From an uncultured Collinsella sp. (GTDB taxonomy: Bacteria; Actinomycetota; Coriobacteriia; Coriobacteriales; Coriobacteriaceae): a stretch of DNA of 64,000 nucleotides. The DNA lies in assembly GCA_902466855.1 (NCBI GenBank), contig CABQSP010000001.1, forward strand, positions 45,783-109,782, written 5' to 3'. Below are positions 37,807-51,780 of the stretch, one piece after another (position 1 is the first letter of the stretch; every line of letters starts with the position of its first letter). The position numbers and the translations under genes were made by a program. The notes below the pieces were generated by a model. The model did not search any database. It had not been told where the DNA came from and saw nothing but the letters and a program-made list of their open reading frames with translations.

Positions 37807-37881
<75 letters not shown>

Positions 37882-38084
37882 TTGAATTGACTAGGACCTC
37901 TGCAAAGGGGTCCTTTTCTTTTATGCAGTCCCCTGCGGAAAGCGCATCCCAGACATTCCTCCCGCTTTTGCGTCACTTTTCAGACCATTCGGTCGCCTGC
38001 CCGCACGCGCGGGTATACTCAAAACGATACTTTTCCTATGCAATACGATGCGGGCTCGACCTGCACGATCCGAAGGGGGCAGTG

Positions 38085-43623: not shown

Positions 43624-43710
43624 GCGGGCGTGGCGGAATTGGCAGACGCGTACGGTTCAGGTCCGTATGGGGGCAACCCCATGAAGGTTCAAGTCCTTTC
43701 GCCCGCACCA
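43624..43710 (+). tRNA. tRNA-Leu (anticodon CAG), CCA encoded
   Basis: GCGGGCGTGGCGGAATTGGCAGACGCGTACGGTTCAGGTCCGTATGGGGGCAACCCCATGAAGGTTCAAGTCCTTTCGCCCGCACCA. Long variable arm. Confidence 0.85.
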
Positions 43711-43946
43711 TTGATTGAAAGAGCTCCCAGCAATGGGAGCTTTTTTGTTATGGGCCCATCACGGGGACTTGAACCTGTGAAGGAGCGAGCGCAAAGAAAA
43801 CGCGGAGCGTTTTTAGCGAGCTGGCGAGGACGCCGGCAGGCGGCCGAAGCCGGTGCGGATCCGCGAAGCGGATACGCGGACGTCCTTTCGCCCGCACCAT
43901 TAAATGGAAGAGCTCCCAGCAATGGGAGCTTTTTTGTTATGGGCCT
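43693..43946. repeat. tRNA-Leu-associated copy of a dispersed ~190-bp element. A 96-nt core (43785..43880) is flanked by imperfect direct repeats (43693..43756 and 43882..43946) of the tRNA 3' end plus terminator
   Basis: Core is 94% identical to 48784..48879. The flanks are 'gtcctttcgcccgcaccatt[ga/aa]...gagctcccagcaatgggagcttttttgttatgggcc' twice. An inverted T-arm-like 'ggggacttgaacc' precedes the core. Confidence 0.7.
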
Positions 43947-43995
43947 CTTGTTGATGTCACGTGGCTGCTTCGTGCGGGTATCCTAGTGCCAACGT

Positions 43996-44955
43996 GTGCC
44001 TATCAGAGGAGAGACCATGCTGTTGTCCGGAATCATTGCTGCCCTTACGAGTCTTCTGCTTCCCATCATCATTTTGTTGCTGCTGCTTCCCAACGCCTGT
44101 TATGTCGTTGAACAGCAGCATGCCGTGATCATCGAGCGCCTGGGCAAGTTCAATCGTATCGTCAACGCGGGCTTCCACATGAAGGTGCCCGTGATCGACC
44201 GCAAGGCCGCCACGGTGAGCCTGCGCACCATGAAAAACGGCTTCGGCATCGACGTTAAGACCCAGGACAACGTGACCATCGGCCTTGAGGTCTCTGCTCA
44301 GTACCACGTGAGCTATGACATGGGCGCCGGTCCGGCAGATTCGGGTATCTACAAGAGCTACTACATGCTGCAGGAGCCCGTCGACCAGATGCGCGATTTC
44401 ATCACCGATGCCCTTCGCTCTTCCATCCCCGTCTACACACTCGATGAGGTCTTTGCCAAGAAGGATGACATCGCCAAGGACGTCAACGCCACCGTGTCCG
44501 AGCAGATGGCTGCCTACGGCTTCACCCTCGTGTCGACGCTCATCACCAAGATCGCGCTGCCGACCGAGGTCGAGAACTCCATGAACGACATCAACGCCGC
44601 CCAGCGCAAACGCGCTGCTGCGCAGGAGCTCGCCGAGGCCGACCGCATCAAGCGCGTCACCGAGGCGACCGCCGAGGCCGAGGCGATGGAAAAGGCGGGC
44701 GAGGGCATCGCCAACCAGCGCAAGGCCATCGCGCTGGGCATCAAGGATTCACTCGAGATTATCCAAGAGACGGGTGTCGGCAATGACGAGGCCAACCAAC
44801 TGTTCATGTTTACGCAGTGGTCCGAGATGATGACGGAGTTCGCTCGCACGGGTAAAACCTCGACGGTCGTGCTGCCGAGCGACTTTTCGCAGTCGGCCTC
44901 GATGTTCGAGCAGATGCTGACCGCCAGCAAAGTTCAAAACGATTCGAAGGAGTAG
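43996..44955 (+). CDS. SPFH/Band-7 (stomatin/prohibitin-like) membrane protein (likely start 44017)
   Basis: N-terminal TM followed by 'AVIIERLGKFNRIVNAGFHMKVPVID' (SPFH) and a coiled-coil Ala/Glu-rich C-terminus. Confidence 0.8.
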   Translation: MPIRGETMLLSGIIAALTSLLLPIIILLLLLPNACYVVEQQHAVIIERLGKFNRIVNAGFHMKVPVIDRKAATVSLRTMKNGFGIDVKTQDNVTIGLEVSAQYHVSYDMGAGPADSGIYKSYYMLQEPVDQMRDFITDALRSSIPVYTLDEVFAKKDDIAKDVNATVSEQMAAYGFTLVSTLITKIALPTEVENSMNDINAAQRKRAAAQELAEADRIKRVTEATAEAEAMEKAGEGIANQRKAIALGIKDSLEIIQETGVGNDEANQLFMFTQWSEMMTEFARTGKTSTVVLPSDFSQSASMFEQMLTASKVQNDSKE

Positions 44956-44961
44956 ACGCGC

Positions 44962-45432
44962 GTGAAATACACCGTCGTTTGCGTCGGTAAGCTCAAGGAG
45001 CGCTTTTGGAAGGACGCGTGCGCTGAGTACACCAAGCGCCTAGGTGCCTATGCCAAGGTTGATATCCGCGAGGTGGCCGATATCGACCCGGCTAAGGCGG
45101 GCGGCGTGGATGCCGCGCGCGACAAGGAGGGGGCGGCAATTCTTGCTGCATTGCCGTCTCGAGCGCATGTGATCCTGCTGGCTATCGAGGGCAAGGAGCG
45201 TTCGAGTGAGGAGCTCTCGGCGCGGCTCGACGATCTTATGCTGCGAGGCAGCAGCGACATTGCCTTTGTAATCGGCGGTTCGGACGGCGTGAGTGATGAG
45301 GTACGCGCCCGCGCCGACGAGATGCTCAGCTTTGGACGCATTACCTTGCCGCATAACCTGGCGCGTGTGGTGCTGCTAGAGCAGATTTACCGTGCCTGCA
45401 AGATCAGCCGTGGCGAGCCGTATCACAAATAG
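44962..45432 (+). CDS. rlmH: 23S rRNA (pseudouridine1915-N3)-methyltransferase
   Basis: 'MKYTVVCVGKLKERFWKDACAEYTKRL' is an SPOUT RlmH N-terminus. Confidence 0.9.
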   Translation: MKYTVVCVGKLKERFWKDACAEYTKRLGAYAKVDIREVADIDPAKAGGVDAARDKEGAAILAALPSRAHVILLAIEGKERSSEELSARLDDLMLRGSSDIAFVIGGSDGVSDEVRARADEMLSFGRITLPHNLARVVLLEQIYRACKISRGEPYHK

Positions 45433-45505
45433 GTCGGCAATACGAAACAATGGCGTGGGACAATACCTTTCGTTTTGAGGAATGTGTCTGAAAGGACTAT
45501 GAGAT

Positions 45506-46276
45506 ATGAAGATTGGATTTGTCGGTTTTGGCAATATGGCGAGCGCTATGGCCGATGGCTGGATCGCTGCCGGTGTAGTTGCGAGCGACATGTGCGCCTG
45601 TGCGGGTCGCTACGACGCACTGGTTGAGCGCTGCGAGGCGCGCGGCATGGCCGCCTGCCACGATGCCGCCGAGGTTGTCGCCGCATCCGATATCGTGGTC
45701 GCTGCGGTCAAACCGTACATGATCGAGAAGGTATTCGCCCCGCTCAAGGATGCTCTTGCCAAAAAGGTCGTTCTGTCGGTTGCCTGGACCTGGGACAGTG
45801 TCAAGTGGGAGCAGGTCCTGCCGGGCGTCGCGCATATCTCGACGGTGCCCAACACGCCGGTTTCGGTGGGCGAGGGCGTCATCGCTTGCGAGAAGGCTTC
45901 CACGCTTAGTGATGAGCAGAGCGCAGTGGTGCTTGATCTGCTTGGCAAACTCGGTGCGGTGGTCGAGCTCGATACGAGCCTGCTGTTTGTGGGCGGCACG
46001 GTGGGTGGTTGCGCTCCGGCATTTGTCGCCATGGCAATCGAGGCCCTGGGCGATGCAGCGGTCAAGCACGGTATCCCGCGTGCCGATGCCTATCGCATTG
46101 TGAGCCAGATGGTGCTGGGTACGGCAAAGCTGCAGCTTGCAACTGGCCAGCATCCTGCGGCGATGAAGGATGCCGTATGCTCGCCCGGTGGTGCCACCAT
46201 CAAGGGCGTCGTTGCACTCGAGGACGCCGGCATGCGCAGCGCCCTGGTCAAGGCAATTGACGCAACTCTCCAATAA
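45506..46276 (+). CDS. proC: Pyrroline-5-carboxylate reductase
   Basis: 'MKIGFVGFGNMASAMADG' is the Rossmann motif. The C-terminal dimerisation domain is present. Confidence 0.9.
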   Translation: MKIGFVGFGNMASAMADGWIAAGVVASDMCACAGRYDALVERCEARGMAACHDAAEVVAASDIVVAAVKPYMIEKVFAPLKDALAKKVVLSVAWTWDSVKWEQVLPGVAHISTVPNTPVSVGEGVIACEKASTLSDEQSAVVLDLLGKLGAVVELDTSLLFVGGTVGGCAPAFVAMAIEALGDAAVKHGIPRADAYRIVSQMVLGTAKLQLATGQHPAAMKDAVCSPGGATIKGVVALEDAGMRSALVKAIDATLQ

Positions 46277-46435
46277 AACCGACCAAAAAAGACAGGTATA
46301 TTTTGGCAGGTTTTTCCTGCGGTTTTGTCGCATGTACGAAAAGCGCCCCGCAACTGGCTCAATTCCAGCTGCGGGGCGCTTGCATTTGCCCAGATAAAAC
46401 CGACCAAAATAAACCTGCCCCTTTTTGGCAGGTTA
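46274..46435. repeat. 16-bp direct repeat ATAAAACCGACCAAAA (46274 and 46394) bracketing a 15-bp-stem hairpin (46343..46380)
   Basis: Read directly. The first repeat copy overlaps the proC stop codon. Confidence 0.5.
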
Positions 46436-46606
46436 GTCCCAGAAGCTGTCTTCCTCATCCTCGGACTTGGGTCCGCGGTCGACGTACATCTTATGGGTAC
46501 GCTTCTCCATTACAAAGGCAAGAATCGCAAATAACAGGATGCCGCCGGCGAAAAGGATGGCAAAACCGGTGCGGGTGCCAAACAAAAAGGAAAAAACTGC
46601 GTCCAT
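46433..46606 (-). CDS. Small (57 aa) single-TM protein with acidic C-terminus
   Basis: 'MDAVFSFLFGTRTGFAILFAGGILLFAILAFVMEKRTHKMYVDRGPKSEDEEDSFWD'. Confidence 0.4.
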   Translation of the reverse strand: MDAVFSFLFGTRTGFAILFAGGILLFAILAFVMEKRTHKMYVDRGPKSEDEEDSFWD

Positions 46607-46717
46607 TGGGTGCCTTCTTGCGTAGTTGGGTTGGGTCGTAAACGCTCATAAGTATATACTTGCCCATACATGTACAAGGTTGCAACCTAAATGGAATGTA
46701 TATCGCCGGAGGATCTA

Positions 46718-48001
46718 ATGCTTGATATCAAGTTTGTTCGCGAGAACCCCGATGCCATCGATGTCGCCATGGCTAACCGCCAGACGTCTTGGGATCGCGA
46801 GAAGTTCTTTGAGCTCGACGACGAGCGCCGTGCCGTCATCACCGAGGTCGAGGAGCTCCAGGCTACGCGCAATGCCGAGTCCAAGAAGATCGGCGCCCTG
46901 ATGAAGGAGGGCAAGAAGGACGAGGCCGAGGCCGCCAAGGAGGCCGTGCGCGCCGTCAACGAGAAGATTGACGGTCTGGCCGAGCGCCGCACTGCTCTCG
47001 AGCAGGAGCAGTACGACTTCATGGCTCACCTGCCCAACATTCCTTGCGAGGCCACGCCGTACGGCAAGGACGAGGACGAGAACATTGAGCGCCGTCGTTG
47101 GGGCACCCCGCGCGAGTTCGACTTCGACTTTAAGCCGCACTGGGATCTGGGCACCGATCTGGACATCCTCGACTTCGAGCGTGGCAATAAGCTCTCCGGC
47201 AGCCGCTTTACCGTTCTCGGTGGCGCCGGCGCCCGCCTGGAGCGCGCCCTTATCAACTTCTTCCTCGATACGCACACCAGCCGTGGTTTTAAGGAGTGGT
47301 GGCCGCCCATCGTCGTCAAGCGTCAGACCATGTTTGGCACGGGTCAGCTGCCCAAGTTCGAGGACGACGCCTATCACGTCTCGGGCGACAACTTCCTGAT
47401 CCCCACCGCCGAGGTCGTGCTTACCAACTTGCACGCCGGCGAGGTCCTCGATGCCGACACTCTGCCGCGCCGCTACACCGCCTTCACCCCCTGCTTCCGC
47501 GAGGAGGCCGGTTCCGCCGGTCGCGACACCCGCGGCATCATCCGTCAGCACGAGTTCGACAAGGTCGAGATGGTCAAGTTCGCTAAGCCGGAGGAGTCCG
47601 ACGAGGAGCTCGAGAGCATGACCGCCGAGGCCGAGTACCTGCTGCAGCAGCTGGGCCTTCCGTATCGCGTGATTAGCCTGTGCACCGGTGACTTGGGCTT
47701 CTCTGCCCGTCAGACCTACGACGTCGAGGTCTGGCTGCCGAGCTACAACGCCTACAAGGAGATTAGCTCCTGCTCCAACTGCGGTGACTTCCAGGCTCGC
47801 CGCGCCAACATCAAGTATCGCGACCCCGAGAACTTCAAGGGTTCGCGCTACTTGCACACTCTCAACGGTTCCGGCTTGCCGGCCGGCCGCACCATGGCCG
47901 CTATTCTGGAGAACTACCAGAACGCCGACGGCACCATCACGATCCCCGAGGTCCTGCGCCCCTACATGGGCGGCCTCGAGAAGATCGAGCCGGTCGCGTA
48001 A
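46718..48001 (+). CDS. serS: Serine--tRNA ligase
   Basis: '[14 protein letters not shown]...' coiled-coil N-domain, then class II core motifs 'FREEAGS' and 'GSGLPAGRT'. Confidence 0.95.
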
Positions 48002-48024
48002 CTTGCCTGCATAGGGGATATGCA

Positions 48025-48058
48025 AGGGCGCTCCTTCGGGGGCGCCCTATTTCGTGCG
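48025..48058 (+). terminator. Terminator after serS
   Basis: agggcgctcc-ttcg-ggggcgccct + atttcgtg. Confidence 0.55.
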
Positions 48059-48174
48059 TAGGTCCATACCATGCCGTGCGGACAGCTCAATAGAAAACAC
48101 ACGAACAACTGTTCTGTATACAGCCATCTACCTGCTATGCTTTTGCTAAATAAGAGCGAGAGAAAGGGGACGCG

Positions 48175-48552
48175 ATGGAGCTGTTTGATGATCGGGTGGT
48201 TTTGTTTGAGAGCGACGAGGGCGGGGAGTACCTGCTTGTAACGTGTGAGCCGTCTGGCATGGGTGGCCTGGTGGTTCGGCAGACGAGCGAGGGTCCGTTG
48301 ACCCAATGGTGCTTTGAGGAGTCGCCGCATGTGGTCGAGACGTTTGTGGCGCACGAGGGGCTTGTGGCGCTGGAGCACTTCTATGGAGTTGGGACTTCCA
48401 ACCAGGTCGCGCGCATGCTGAGCATCTCGTTTGCCGATTATGACTGTGCTCAGCGGGTGAGATCGCTCCTGAGGGAACTTGATGCCAAGTTTGACGTGAT
48501 CGAAAAGCCAATCGATCGTACGGGGAACGGCGGTATATGCGGAGCAGCATGA
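48175..48552 (+). CDS. Hypothetical protein (125 aa)
   Basis: ORF only. An acidic N-terminus is present. No recognised domain. Confidence 0.35.
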   Translation: MELFDDRVVLFESDEGGEYLLVTCEPSGMGGLVVRQTSEGPLTQWCFEESPHVVETFVAHEGLVALEHFYGVGTSNQVARMLSISFADYDCAQRVRSLLRELDAKFDVIEKPIDRTGNGGICGAA

Positions 48553-48629
48553 CAAAACTGCGTTCCACAAAAAAGTTTGAGATTGTGCTTGACTCCAATA
48601 AGCTAAAGTGGTTTTATATGTCTTGCGCT

Positions 48630-48706
48630 GCGGCGTTACCTCAGCTGGATAGAGGGTCTGACTACGAATCAGAACGTCATAGGTTCGAATCCTATACGCC
48701 GCACCA
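48630..48706 (+). tRNA. tRNA-Arg (anticodon ACG), CCA encoded
   Basis: GCGGCGTTACCTCAGCTGGATAGAGGGTCTGACTACGAATCAGAACGTCATAGGTTCGAATCCTATACGCCGCACCA. Confidence 0.85.
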
Positions 48707-48976
48707 ATTGAATTTTAAAGCCTCCGGCAACGGGGGCTTTTCTTTTATGTCGCCGCTGCATGGATTCGAACCTCGGTCGAGGCGCGAGCGCCAAGAAAAC
48801 GCGGAGCGTTTTTAGCGAGCGGGCGAGCACGCCGGCAGGCGGGCGAAGCCGGTGCGGATCCGCGCAGCGGATGCGCGGAATCCTATACGCCGCACCATTT
48901 GAGATTAAAGCTCCCGGCAACGGGGGCTTTTCTTTTACGTAAACACTGCATGGATTCGAACCTCGGTCGAGGCGCA
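48688..48976. repeat. tRNA-Arg-associated copy of the dispersed element. The 96-nt core (48784..48879) is flanked by ~97-bp imperfect direct repeats (48688..48786, 48880..48976) of the tRNA 3' end, terminator and inverted T-arm-like segment
   Basis: 'atcctatacgccgcacca..aaagc[c/t]cccggcaacgggggcttttctttt..ctgcatggattcgaacctcggtcgaggcgc' occurs twice. The core is 94% identical to the Leu-locus core and contains the palindromes GCGGATCCGC and CGCGCAGCGGATGCGCG. Confidence 0.7.
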
Positions 48977-49082
48977 GGCGTAAAGCGGACTATTTCCTGT
49001 CGACTCGTGTAAGATTTCGAGTAGGTGTCGCGGCCCATCCGTGACCACTCCTTCTTCAAGCGACCGATCAGGGTGATACTTC

Positions 49083-51616: not shown

Positions 51617-51707
51617 GGAGAGCTGACCGAGAGGCCGAAGGTGCTCGCCTGCTAAGCGAGTATGCCCCAAAAGGGCATCTGGGGTTCGAATCCCCAGCTC
51701 TCCGCCA
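51617..51707 (+). tRNA. tRNA-Ser (anticodon GCT), long variable arm, CCA encoded
   Basis: GGAGAGCTGACCGAGAGGCCGAAGGTGCTCGCCTGCTAAGCGAGTATGCCCCAAAAGGGCATCTGGGGTTCGAATCCCCAGCTCTCCGCCA. Confidence 0.85.
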
Positions 51708-51762: not shown

Positions 51763-51780
51763 CGCTGGGGATTCGAACCC
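51763..51780. repeat. Inverted partial copy of the tRNA-Ser T-arm/acceptor 3' strand, located after the tRNA-Ser terminator
   Basis: 'gctggggattcgaaccc' is the reverse complement of the tRNA's 'gggttcgaatccccagc' (17 of 17). It has the same placement as the inverted segments at the Leu and Arg loci. Confidence 0.6.

Follow-up and report, generated by a model that had tools for sequence, protein, structure and literature searches.

Why should the same short piece of GC-rich DNA stand directly behind two different tRNA genes, each time followed by a second copy of the 3' end of that very tRNA? The question is raised by a 64-kb stretch of the genome of an uncultured Collinsella sp. (64,000 nucleotides of contig CABQSP010000001.1, assembly GCA_902466855.1; henceforth the window), in which ARAGORN finds five tRNA genes. 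Downstream of two of them, tRNA-Leu(CAG) and tRNA-Arg(ACG), the same parts follow in the same order: a terminator (R1), a short segment antisense to the local T-loop (X), a core, a second tRNA 3' end and a second terminator (R2). An initial annotation, made from the letters alone, had pointed out this arrangement and read it as a dispersed element inserted at tRNA 3' ends. Its observation is confirmed and greatly extended here, and its interpretation is partly supported: the two loci belong to a family of gene-less units, each with a structured core and a locally matched X, that we tentatively regard as insertion modules specific to tRNA genes.

At the leucine locus (the features of both loci lie on the plus strand) an intact tRNA-Leu(CAG) gene (43624–43710; Rfam tRNA, 50.6 bits) is followed by R1, which comprises the trailer, an intrinsic terminator hairpin recovered in the predicted fold and a T-run (43711–43756), and then by X (43757–43780), in which ggacttgaacc (43765–43775) is the reverse complement of ggttcaagtcc in the tRNA. 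The core comes next (43781–43880, ending in GCGGAC), followed by a second copy of tRNA-Leu nt 59–76 (GTCCTTTCGCCCGCACCA, 43882–43899) and by R2 (43900–43945), a second trailer and terminator 95% identical to R1. A repeat search of the window gives the flank repeat as 43693–43756 against 43882–43945 (64 nt, 95% identity). The arginine locus has the same parts: tRNA-Arg(ACG) (48630–48706; ARAGORN, Rfam 66 bits), R1 with its trailer and a terminator stem at 48717–48740 (48707–48753), X (48754–48782; ggattcgaacc at 48762–48772, the reverse complement of ggttcgaatcc), the core (48780–48879; nhmmer profile match, E = 1.5e-34), the second tRNA 3' end (48880–48897, identical from nt 57 if the terminal GA of the core is counted) and R2 with a stem at 48907–48930 (48898–48945), both stems being called by the terminator scan. 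Over 100 GC-rich nucleotides the two cores, assigned to type 1, are 93% identical (90 of 96 positions in the narrower limits first annotated), the window has exactly two copies of a core 28-mer where shuffles give an expectation of 0, and the palindrome reported earlier, GCGGATCCGC, is found in the core; coordinates, identity, antisense segments and palindrome all hold as first described.

The Arg locus is less tidy than had been thought. Repeats do bracket the core there (48690–48753 against 48880–48943, extended by 48715–48795 against 48905–48985; 81 nt, 86%). Since the repeat does not stop at the terminator but takes in a second X and ~15 nt from the start of a truncated core (48970–48990), the locus consists of about 1.5 tandem units and is not one insert flanked cleanly. 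The remnant behind R2 (48946–48990) holds X' (ggattcgaacc, 48952–48962), the first core helix and a core start fused to the core end (aggcgcaggcgtaaag-cggac), and a remnant of this kind is all that follows the single terminator in core-less alleles elsewhere (e.g. L090, L088 and L077, in our numbering of loci).

A profile search of all fetched sequence recovered at least 351 units in Collinsella genomes and gut metagenomes. Among the matches listed, the targets were Leu(CAG) (105 units), Arg(ACG) (75), Val(TAC) (40), Gln(TTG) (31) and Glu(TTC) (21), with Phe (19), Ser(GCT) (10), Lys(TTT) (4), Ser(TGA) (2), Leu(TAA) (1) and tmRNA (1) as rarer ones; as exact core words served as seeds for scanning genomes and metagenomes, these frequencies are biased. 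The dispersed family initially suspected at tRNA 3' ends now spans at least ten different tRNA genes and the tmRNA gene, with three types of core. All assignable units lie 3' of a tRNA and on its strand, and the cases with "no tRNA" are locus edges, the tmRNA copy, prophage junctions at tRNA-Glu or tRNA-Gln, or rearrangements. Over the 64 kb of the window, where the profile search finds two units, and over 93 kb of C. aerofaciens, where it finds one, none lies away from a tRNA gene. An exact core 19-mer matched at least 120 genome contigs, nearly all from Collinsella, and among the contigs listed the core stands at a fixed offset behind 99 of 100 tRNA-Leu(CAG) genes and 71 of 107 tRNA-Arg(ACG) genes. 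These two genes form part of a syntenic block in the order Phe, Leu, Arg and Ser, with 6, 5 and 2.6 kb between successive genes. Because the Leu and Arg sites are 5 kb apart and in the same orientation in all genomes, gene conversion suffices to explain the 93% identity of their cores, which need not imply recent transposition.

Away from this block, a type-1 core is found behind the tmRNA gene of C. acetigenes (confirmed as tmRNA by Rfam), where the 80-nt flanks are 100% identical, and a type-2 core behind tRNA-Val(TAC) on a 900-kb replicon of C. aerofaciens. The latter (NZ_OY725717.1; L121, L122, L134) is filed as "plasmid 6". It has recA, groEL/ES, ftsK, an arg operon and tRNA genes, and is either a piece of a chromosome or a replicon of chromosomal type. 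Further targets, namely Gln(TTG), Glu(TTC), Lys(TTT), Ser(TGA) and Leu(TAA), came from gut metagenomes scanned for a type-2 word. In the window itself, tRNA-Val(GAC) has neither X nor core. The terminator tail behind it (4780–4760, minus strand; gttttgttttatgtcgcc) is nearly identical to the tRNA-Arg tail (cttttcttttatgtcgcc, 48740–48757), a likeness that hints at a shared ancestry of tRNA downstream regions.

The units share one design of about 188 bp: the tRNA 3' end (from T-loop nt 55–59 to the CCA), R1, X, a core of ~100 nt and, usually, the tRNA 3' end again. This second copy starts at nt 59 in Leu, Val, Glu and type-3 Ser units, at nt 57 in Arg, Gln and Leu(TAA), at nt 56 in Phe and at nt 55 in type-2 Ser units, and within a target it hardly varies (76 of the 77 Leu units and 64 of the 65 Arg units conform). 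Nt 59 and its counterpart are 183–193 bp apart in nine tRNA types and 200 bp apart at tmRNA. A helical-phase constraint on the 188-bp spacing was considered and dropped, the range being too broad and accounted for by variation in terminator length. Likewise, a reverse transcriptase stop at m1A58 would fit the nt-59 boundary and a copy of 18 nt; it is contradicted by the continuation of the repeat into trailer and terminator and by the variation of the start between nt 55 and 59, and is speculation.

How far the repeat extends beyond the tRNA varies between targets. It is shortest, the tRNA 3' end alone (about 14–22 nt), in all Gln and most Val units, and longest, 50–100 nt including R and even X, in Leu, Phe and some Arg, Glu and Ser units; the sole near-universal repeat is the tRNA 3' end, from T-loop nt 55–59 to about nt 72–76. 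This is the classical att core of integrases directed at tRNA genes (phage Ms6, PMC1762012), so that the initial claim that simple integrase att duplication does not explain the flanks was unjustified. Nor do the data support the further proposal that insertion produced all of the long terminator repeats. A duplicated terminator is indeed present at Leu, Phe and tmRNA, and at the latter two the flanking repeats are 100% identical and R1 and R2 equal the R of the empty allele; at Val(TAC), Gln and one Ser(GCT) lineage (L203), R1 and R2 are unrelated, R2 is absent at Gln, and at Arg, Glu and Ser the apparent flank includes part of a second, decayed unit. The modules are mosaic besides: terminator tail and 5' part of X are common to Leu and Val, and again to Arg and Phe, despite differing core types, and R2 at the Val locus resembles the Leu terminator. 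X is antisense to the T-loop plus 2–4 nt on each side (extending to nt 51–67 in tmRNA, Ser and Gln copies) and matches the local T-loop in five variants (TTCGAAT, TTCGATT, TTCAAGT, TTCGAGT and TTCGAAC). This local match could reflect a guide function, pairing in cis within an RNA, or template-switch correction between nearby inverted repeats.

The core is built of four or five hairpins with GNRA or GNA loops, and the length from X to the CCA is held at 132–143 nt. In an alignment of 29 diverse units, from which the structure itself was predicted, a closing helix joins the 5' side of X with the start of the 3' copy. Helix P1 pairs the 3' CCC or CCT of X with GGG or AGG across a GNRA loop, and further helices are a long P2, P3 and a terminal P4 that is present throughout with a sequence wholly different between core types. 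In the Leu copy P1 (43774–43783) pairs CCT with AGG over the loop GTGA and is joined by P2 (AAAACGC-GGA-GCGTTTT), P3, P3' and P4 (ATCCGC-GAA-GCGGAT); in the Arg copy P1 is cctcggtcgagg (48771–48782). P1 covaries (UA in 17 rows, CG in 12), and AAAACGC/GCGTTTT is replaced in Arg copies by CGGACGC/GCGTCCG, a G·U intermediate being seen. Over the whole alignment, 95.7% of the cells are paired, against 83.2% in column shuffles (0 of 500) and 25–57% in slid-partner controls, and double-change cells number 84, against 27 in shuffles. Fourteen pairs have changes on both sides, and the covariation score, computed on the structure derived from the same alignment, is 0.432 against 0.209 in shuffles (0 of 500). 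Of the 694 cells, 73 hold a G·U pair, a combination that turns into an A·C mismatch on the opposite strand; the loops are GGA, GAA, GCA, GCAA, GTGA, GAAA and GAGA. According to this model it is the tRNA-sense strand of the core that folds, as a single strand. The idea of a tRNA-like gene in the opposite orientation was rejected, the minus strand having no T-stem or acceptor pairing and the G·U pairs favouring the plus strand.

Single-sequence folding z-scores of six units range from -1.4 to -5.2 (Arg -1.42, Val -1.84, Leu -2.60), the lowest being that of Ser-type units, whose predicted fold is a closed multi-helix junction (z = -5.2). A read-through transcript is predicted to form a 14-bp pairing between X and the T-arm and a second pairing between the distal 3' copy and the 5' acceptor strand. 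A promoter scan found no promoter-like site between R1 and X; the same scan also misses the tRNA promoters. At the Leu locus of 62 genomes, nucleotide diversity (pi) was 0.000 in the tRNA, 0.031 in the core (about 0.038 once the ascertained 19-mer is removed), 0.024 in the 3' copy and 0.078 in X, compared with 0.107 in the downstream intergenic DNA and 0.170 at third codon positions. Core diversity at this locus is 4–5 times below that of synonymous sites.

Presence of the units differs between strains. The tRNA-Arg(ACG) locus is an array of 1–3 complete genes, each with its own promoter spacer and most with a unit behind (window 48630–48990; L007, L029, L043, L045, L059, L065, L098; the spacers of the extra copies read TTGACC...CATAAT and are of two types), so that strains differ in their dosage of tRNA-Arg; the arrays contain 1–3 units. 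Tandem cores were seen in L022, L048, L068 and L165, and core-less as well as X-less alleles at the Arg locus. At the other members of the syntenic block the window itself is empty: tRNA-Phe(GAA) (37807–37881) and its terminator form an empty site (37807–37927, plus strand) that is filled by a diverged type-2 core in 13 of the 20 genomes listed (L003 is a filled example), and tRNA-Ser(GCT) (51617–51707) is followed by a solo X (gctggggattcgaaccc, 51764–51780, plus strand, the reverse complement of Ser nt 51–67), directly after which other genomes have a type-3 core and a second 3' copy (filled in 7 of the 11 genomes listed; L029 is an example). An empty site holds one repeat. Ser terminator alleles are swapped between the first and second position. 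Finally, L138 is a Gln/Val chimera, in which tRNA-Gln, its terminator and a Gln-type X lead into a core whose far side continues with the tRNA-Val(TAC) 3' copy and terminator, the join lying within the core; judged from its sequence, it is evidence of recombination between cores at different tRNA genes.

Other small repeats share these loci. At several tRNA loci a ~300-nt miniature transposable element, whose terminal inverted repeats are GGKCAAAAAAYRGCAAATATGAGTACTG / CAGTACTCATATTTGRYCTTTTTTGMCC, stands beside or inside units (L073, L010, L080, L099, L101 and L022 at the Leu site, L127–L133 and L160 at the Glu site, and L138), some copies replacing the second tRNA copy together with the core's 3' half. 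The Lys units (L139, L190) have an enlarged core with a duplicated P2-like hairpin and are cut by a second miniature transposable element, with terminal repeats GAGGTTTTTCGTA / TACGAAAAACCTC; a second tRNA 3' end was not found anywhere in these two loci. A separate, perfectly palindromic repeat of ~60 nt (GCCGGCACTTGGAGACGTTCCTAAAGTGCCGGC ... reverse complement) recurs downstream of Gln units (L129, L124, L125, L151).

Which known family, carrier or enzyme might account for the units? In Rfam the core finds no family, whether at gathering thresholds or at E <= 10 (type 1) and E <= 1 (type 2), only tRNAs and weak terminator-like matches appearing; this covariance-model search covers tRNA-like families, group I and II introns, ribozymes and Collinsella-1. 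The initial annotation had not recognised the element as a described repeat family. A group I intron was rejected also on its position and form: the junction is in the T-loop and not in the anticodon loop, and the ~100-nt core consists of four simple hairpins. Its last base is G only under some junction readings. By BLAST, the unit matches no phage sequence and among plasmids only the chromosomal-type Collinsella replicon that supplied the Val(TAC) member. Viral contigs gave ten real matches, all of them host DNA beside a prophage attR at tRNA-Glu or tRNA-Gln. Phages were accordingly discarded as carriers, these contigs being prophages (with a GH25-LysM lysin) whose attR abuts host DNA with the unit and then the host glutamine synthetase; their crossover falls at the very end of the true tRNA, on its 3' side, and the core is not inside them. 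Their attP arm (Glu(TTC) prophages in L127–L133, Gln(TTG) prophages in L124–L126 and L129) carries a degenerate pseudo-tRNA 3' part, a T-arm-like hairpin with ...CACCA or ...GCCA. One of them encodes a protein with the Pfam domain RVT_1 (L132:6609–7850, minus strand), probably from a diversity-generating retroelement; no protein of this kind is linked to the units, whose truncated copies keep their 5' part. The phage, plasmid and viral collections contained no parent element with these ends. The only genes that recur near units at different tRNAs are ABC transporter and response regulator paralogues and two families without a Pfam match, and an island remnant (insertion sequence (IS) elements, a RelB antitoxin and a methylase) lies 3' of the Val(TAC) unit.

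One further multi-copy insertion deserves mention. It ends in ...GGCGGCCCCCAATGGCTTTCTCATATCGTC, the end lying inside the T-run of R1 just upstream of X (L110:1–186, L119:1–136, L115 and L135, at contig or locus ends), occurs at Phe, Leu and one further tRNA locus and is 100% identical between two genomes. No match was found for it in Rfam (group II introns included), plasmids or viral contigs, and Rfam lends no support to a group IIC intron as the source of its 186-nt end (L110, L119). From its position, it may be a mobile element that targets terminators, and as such a candidate trans-acting partner.

The reading that we favour, though we would stop just short of calling it probable, treats the unit as a non-autonomous module that inserts specifically at tRNA genes, where the T-loop anchors it, and that is moved in trans, its core being a structured RNA or a single strand; the first of the candidates initially proposed was much the same. 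Such a module would enter at a tRNA gene with one of its junctions fixed in the T-loop and, with a 3' end on either side of the insert, would not damage the tRNA. An enzyme acting from elsewhere would supply the mobility, and the hairpin core would serve as RNA or in single-stranded form during mobilisation or expression. Later recombination between the repeats would multiply, lose and shuffle units, giving rise to tandem arrays, "empty" alleles and chimeras, and neighbouring copies such as those at Leu and Arg would be homogenised by gene conversion.

Two routes of entry appear to us about equally plausible. In one, a circle made of the tRNA 3' end, R, X and core would be integrated by a recombinase crossing over in the T-loop. 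This has precedent and fits the unrelated R1 and R2 at Val, Gln and Ser as well as the decayed second units behind R2. In the other, X and core would be inserted between staggered breaks in the T-loop and downstream, possibly through an RNA, with duplication of the local 3' end. Staggered breaks account for a 3' copy that is always local, a fixed 3' junction with a variable other boundary, and the identity of R1, R2 and the empty-allele R at Phe and tmRNA; we know of no bacterial enzyme for such an insertion.

Several observations weigh against a mobile module. Every "empty" allele equals what recombination between the unit's own repeats would produce, and no insertion event is directly documented. 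An empty-site comparison, suggested at the outset as a way to define the insertion boundaries, thus yielded empty alleles at Phe, Ser and Arg; since all of them can be derived by inter-repeat recombination, they do not prove a pre-insertion state. No circular or excised form of the unit is known, and the 5 kb around units at different tRNA genes have no integrase, transposase or reverse transcriptase in common. The second 3' copy is missing from the Lys units and from one Leu variant. Integration of a circle would require that retargeting to a new tRNA pass through a chimeric, non-functional tRNA, and staggered breaks would need secondary events where R1 and R2 are unrelated, as they are at Val, Gln and Ser (L203). 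Finally, the Leu unit is present in nearly every fetched Collinsella genome with its core under apparent purifying selection, which suits a host function equally well.

A host function is the strongest rival, and corresponds to the co-transcribed structured RNA that the initial annotation had listed as its second candidate; we hold it to be possible, if on balance unlikely. X and core, with or without the tRNA 3' copy, would form a structured 3' trailer domain, reached by read-through of R1, that affects, in cis or in trans, the tRNA it follows; it might, for instance, help read-through precursors to fold or to be checked for quality, take part in 3'-end processing, or serve as a decoy or a spare 3' end. 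Its spread among tRNA genes would be ancient, and selection rather than mobility would maintain it. Such an RNA agrees with all the structural and conservation data: covariation, GNRA and GNA loops and G·U pairs on the tRNA-sense strand, the low diversity of the core and the 3' copy (4–5 times below synonymous sites), the constant unit length, the complementarity of X to the local T-loop in all types, the pairings of the predicted read-through transcript and the closed junction of Ser-type units. The scan without a promoter-like site from R1 to X, the terminator 3' of the unit and the lack of a linked mobility gene favour it too. It is weakened mainly by the dispensability and decay of the units. 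Presence and absence alternate among close relatives at Phe, Ser and Arg, copies that are truncated or split by miniature transposable elements are tolerated, the 3' copy is decayed at Gln and Ser(TGA) and absent at Lys, and Gln lacks R2. Moreover, three of the six folded units (Arg, Val and Leu) are only modestly more stable than shuffles, and a role that needs transcription past an efficient terminator is awkward.

A further reading is a tRNA-homing, RNA-based non-autonomous element, which we consider rather unlikely. In it, an X-core RNA would find the tRNA gene, or else the precursor tRNA, with its antisense T-loop as a guide; copying or insertion would take place at that spot, the junction being set at T-loop nt 58/59 and the local 3' end duplicated; alternatively, the unit would be an RNA cassette providing a "spare 3' end", with X splinting a broken tRNA to the replacement 3' segment. 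To our knowledge, neither mechanism has a described bacterial precedent, and we doubt that the mechanism is categorically new.

Could the units be nothing more than the footprint of ordinary integrases? They would then be decayed remnants of larger islands or prophages integrated in the T-loop, with the attL side (the regenerated 3' end and an element-borne terminator) joined to the attR side, stacked in tandem by accretion and with neither function nor mobility of their own. An intact tRNA with a displaced 3' fragment starting in the T-loop is the hallmark of island ends (Islander, PMC4383910; Ms6, PMC1762012), and decay followed by accretion is documented (PMC5704250). In Collinsella, prophages at tRNA-Glu and tRNA-Gln directly adjoin units, as does the island remnant 3' of the Val(TAC) unit. 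Random decay, however, would not yield the same 188-bp design with homologous cores and covarying hairpins at eleven genes, the core is more conserved than the adjacent intergenic DNA, the prophages observed cross over at the extreme tRNA 3' end and without the core, and the phage, plasmid and viral collections hold no full-length element with such ends. We therefore regard a mere footprint as improbable.

A history in which each tRNA locus underwent only its own tandem duplication or unequal crossing-over, without transfer between loci, agrees with the variable array at Arg and with the gain and loss of units between direct repeats; it cannot account for homologous cores behind ten tRNA genes and tmRNA at unlinked loci of different species, and is very improbable. 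A small protein-coding gene or leader peptide has practically no standing: open reading frames of 77–118 codons do cross both units, yet they run on through terminators and tRNA, while the unit is small, as had been noted from the start, and varies by 1-nt and 4-nt indels in hairpin loops, with compensatory rather than codon-wise substitutions in its stems and only two of the six Leu/Arg differences synonymous in the best frame.

Literature searches retrieved no description of this family of hairpin units; the family is undescribed, and the kinds of element it resembles (miniature, tRNA-gene-specific, structured) are already known. If the units are mobile, they make up a miniature class of tRNA-gene-specific elements and point to a T-arm-recognising activity supplied in trans, which might offer a principle for programmable targeting; if they are host RNAs, they are a new family of tRNA-linked structured RNAs. 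Homing by RNA, if true, would be a bacterial counterpart of short interspersed nuclear elements (SINEs) or of guide-RNA-directed insertion. In practical terms, the units underlie the copy-number variability of tRNA-Arg, break assemblies at tRNA loci and can mislead island finders that rely on tRNA fragments.

Among known small repeats, the closest in appearance are miniature inverted-repeat transposable elements (MITEs) and the repetitive extragenic palindromic families REP and REPIN, all of which are small, non-coding, palindrome-rich, intergenic, moved in trans and polymorphic among strains. The unit is set apart from MITEs by a repeat of 14–100 bp instead of 2–10 bp and by inverted ends (4–11 bp) that are the target's own T-arm. 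It differs from REP, BIME and REPIN sequences in being low-copy and restricted to tRNA genes where those have a high intergenic copy number, and no RAYT or IS transposase partner recurs within 5 kb of units. Retroposition of eukaryotic SINEs proceeds by target-primed reverse transcription of a non-autonomous, tRNA-associated structured RNA, and like the units it gives a fixed 3' junction (the first nick), a variable length of target duplication and some 3' junctions with an extra nucleotide. Here no reverse transcriptase is linked, truncated copies keep the 5' and not the 3' part, and the duplication extends past the transcript end; we know of no bacterial example of SINE-type retroposition. 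In group II introns (by pairing of exon-binding and intron-binding sites, EBS/IBS) and in the bridge and seek RNAs of IS110 elements, a segment of the element complements its own target and sits on a structured RNA scaffold. X likewise complements its target across the insertion point (nt 51–63 around 58/59), in a unit that has no detected ribozyme core, Rfam family, recombinase or intron-encoded protein; nor do group II introns and IS110 elements duplicate 18–100 bp of target. In Escherichia coli, tyrT is followed by 178-bp tandem repeats that contain the last 19 nt of tRNA-Tyr. These share with the Collinsella units a size of ~180 bp, the tandem order behind a tRNA gene and a tRNA 3' end in each repeat; they are found at a single locus, and are not known to contain an antisense T-loop or a core shared with other tRNA genes.

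The best-matched precedents are integrative elements. tRNA and tmRNA genes are the main landing sites of islands and prophages, and the known cases carry an integrase and are several kb in size. In the Actinobacteria, mycobacteriophage Ms6 uses a 26-bp att core with strand exchange in the 7-bp T-loop, and small changes in its attP core retarget it (PMC1762012). An intact tRNA gene and a displaced 3' fragment bracketing foreign DNA are the textbook footprint of site-specific integration into tRNA genes (Islander, PMC4383910), and decayed elements that retain attL and attR (cis-mobilizable elements, CIMEs) accumulate in tandem by accretion (PMC5704250). The units resemble CIMEs in being non-autonomous, bounded by att repeats at a tRNA 3' end and stacked in tandem. 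CIMEs are kilobase-sized with arbitrary content, whereas the Collinsella unit is of constant size, conserved, structured and common to different tRNA genes, and phages, plasmids and viral contigs provide no recognisable parent phage or integrative element (conjugative, ICE, or mobilizable, IME) for it. With the integrative elements that use a T-loop att site, such as Ms6 and those in Islander, the units share tRNA and tmRNA targets, the intact gene with a displaced 3' fragment beginning in the T-loop, a repeat of about 18–26 bp to the 3' end and the occurrence in tandem. As in integrase islands, the direct repeats start in the T-loop (nt 55–59, in nine tRNA types and tmRNA) and presence and absence are precise, an empty site equalling one repeat, a pattern that recombination between repeats can also produce; an integrase gene is what the units lack. 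What is new here is a gene-less 188-bp unit of constant design, with the same covarying, conserved core at eleven targets and an internal, inverted copy of the local T-loop for each of them: the footprint of an integrase island, in an abundant human gut genus, that encloses a folded unit instead of an island.

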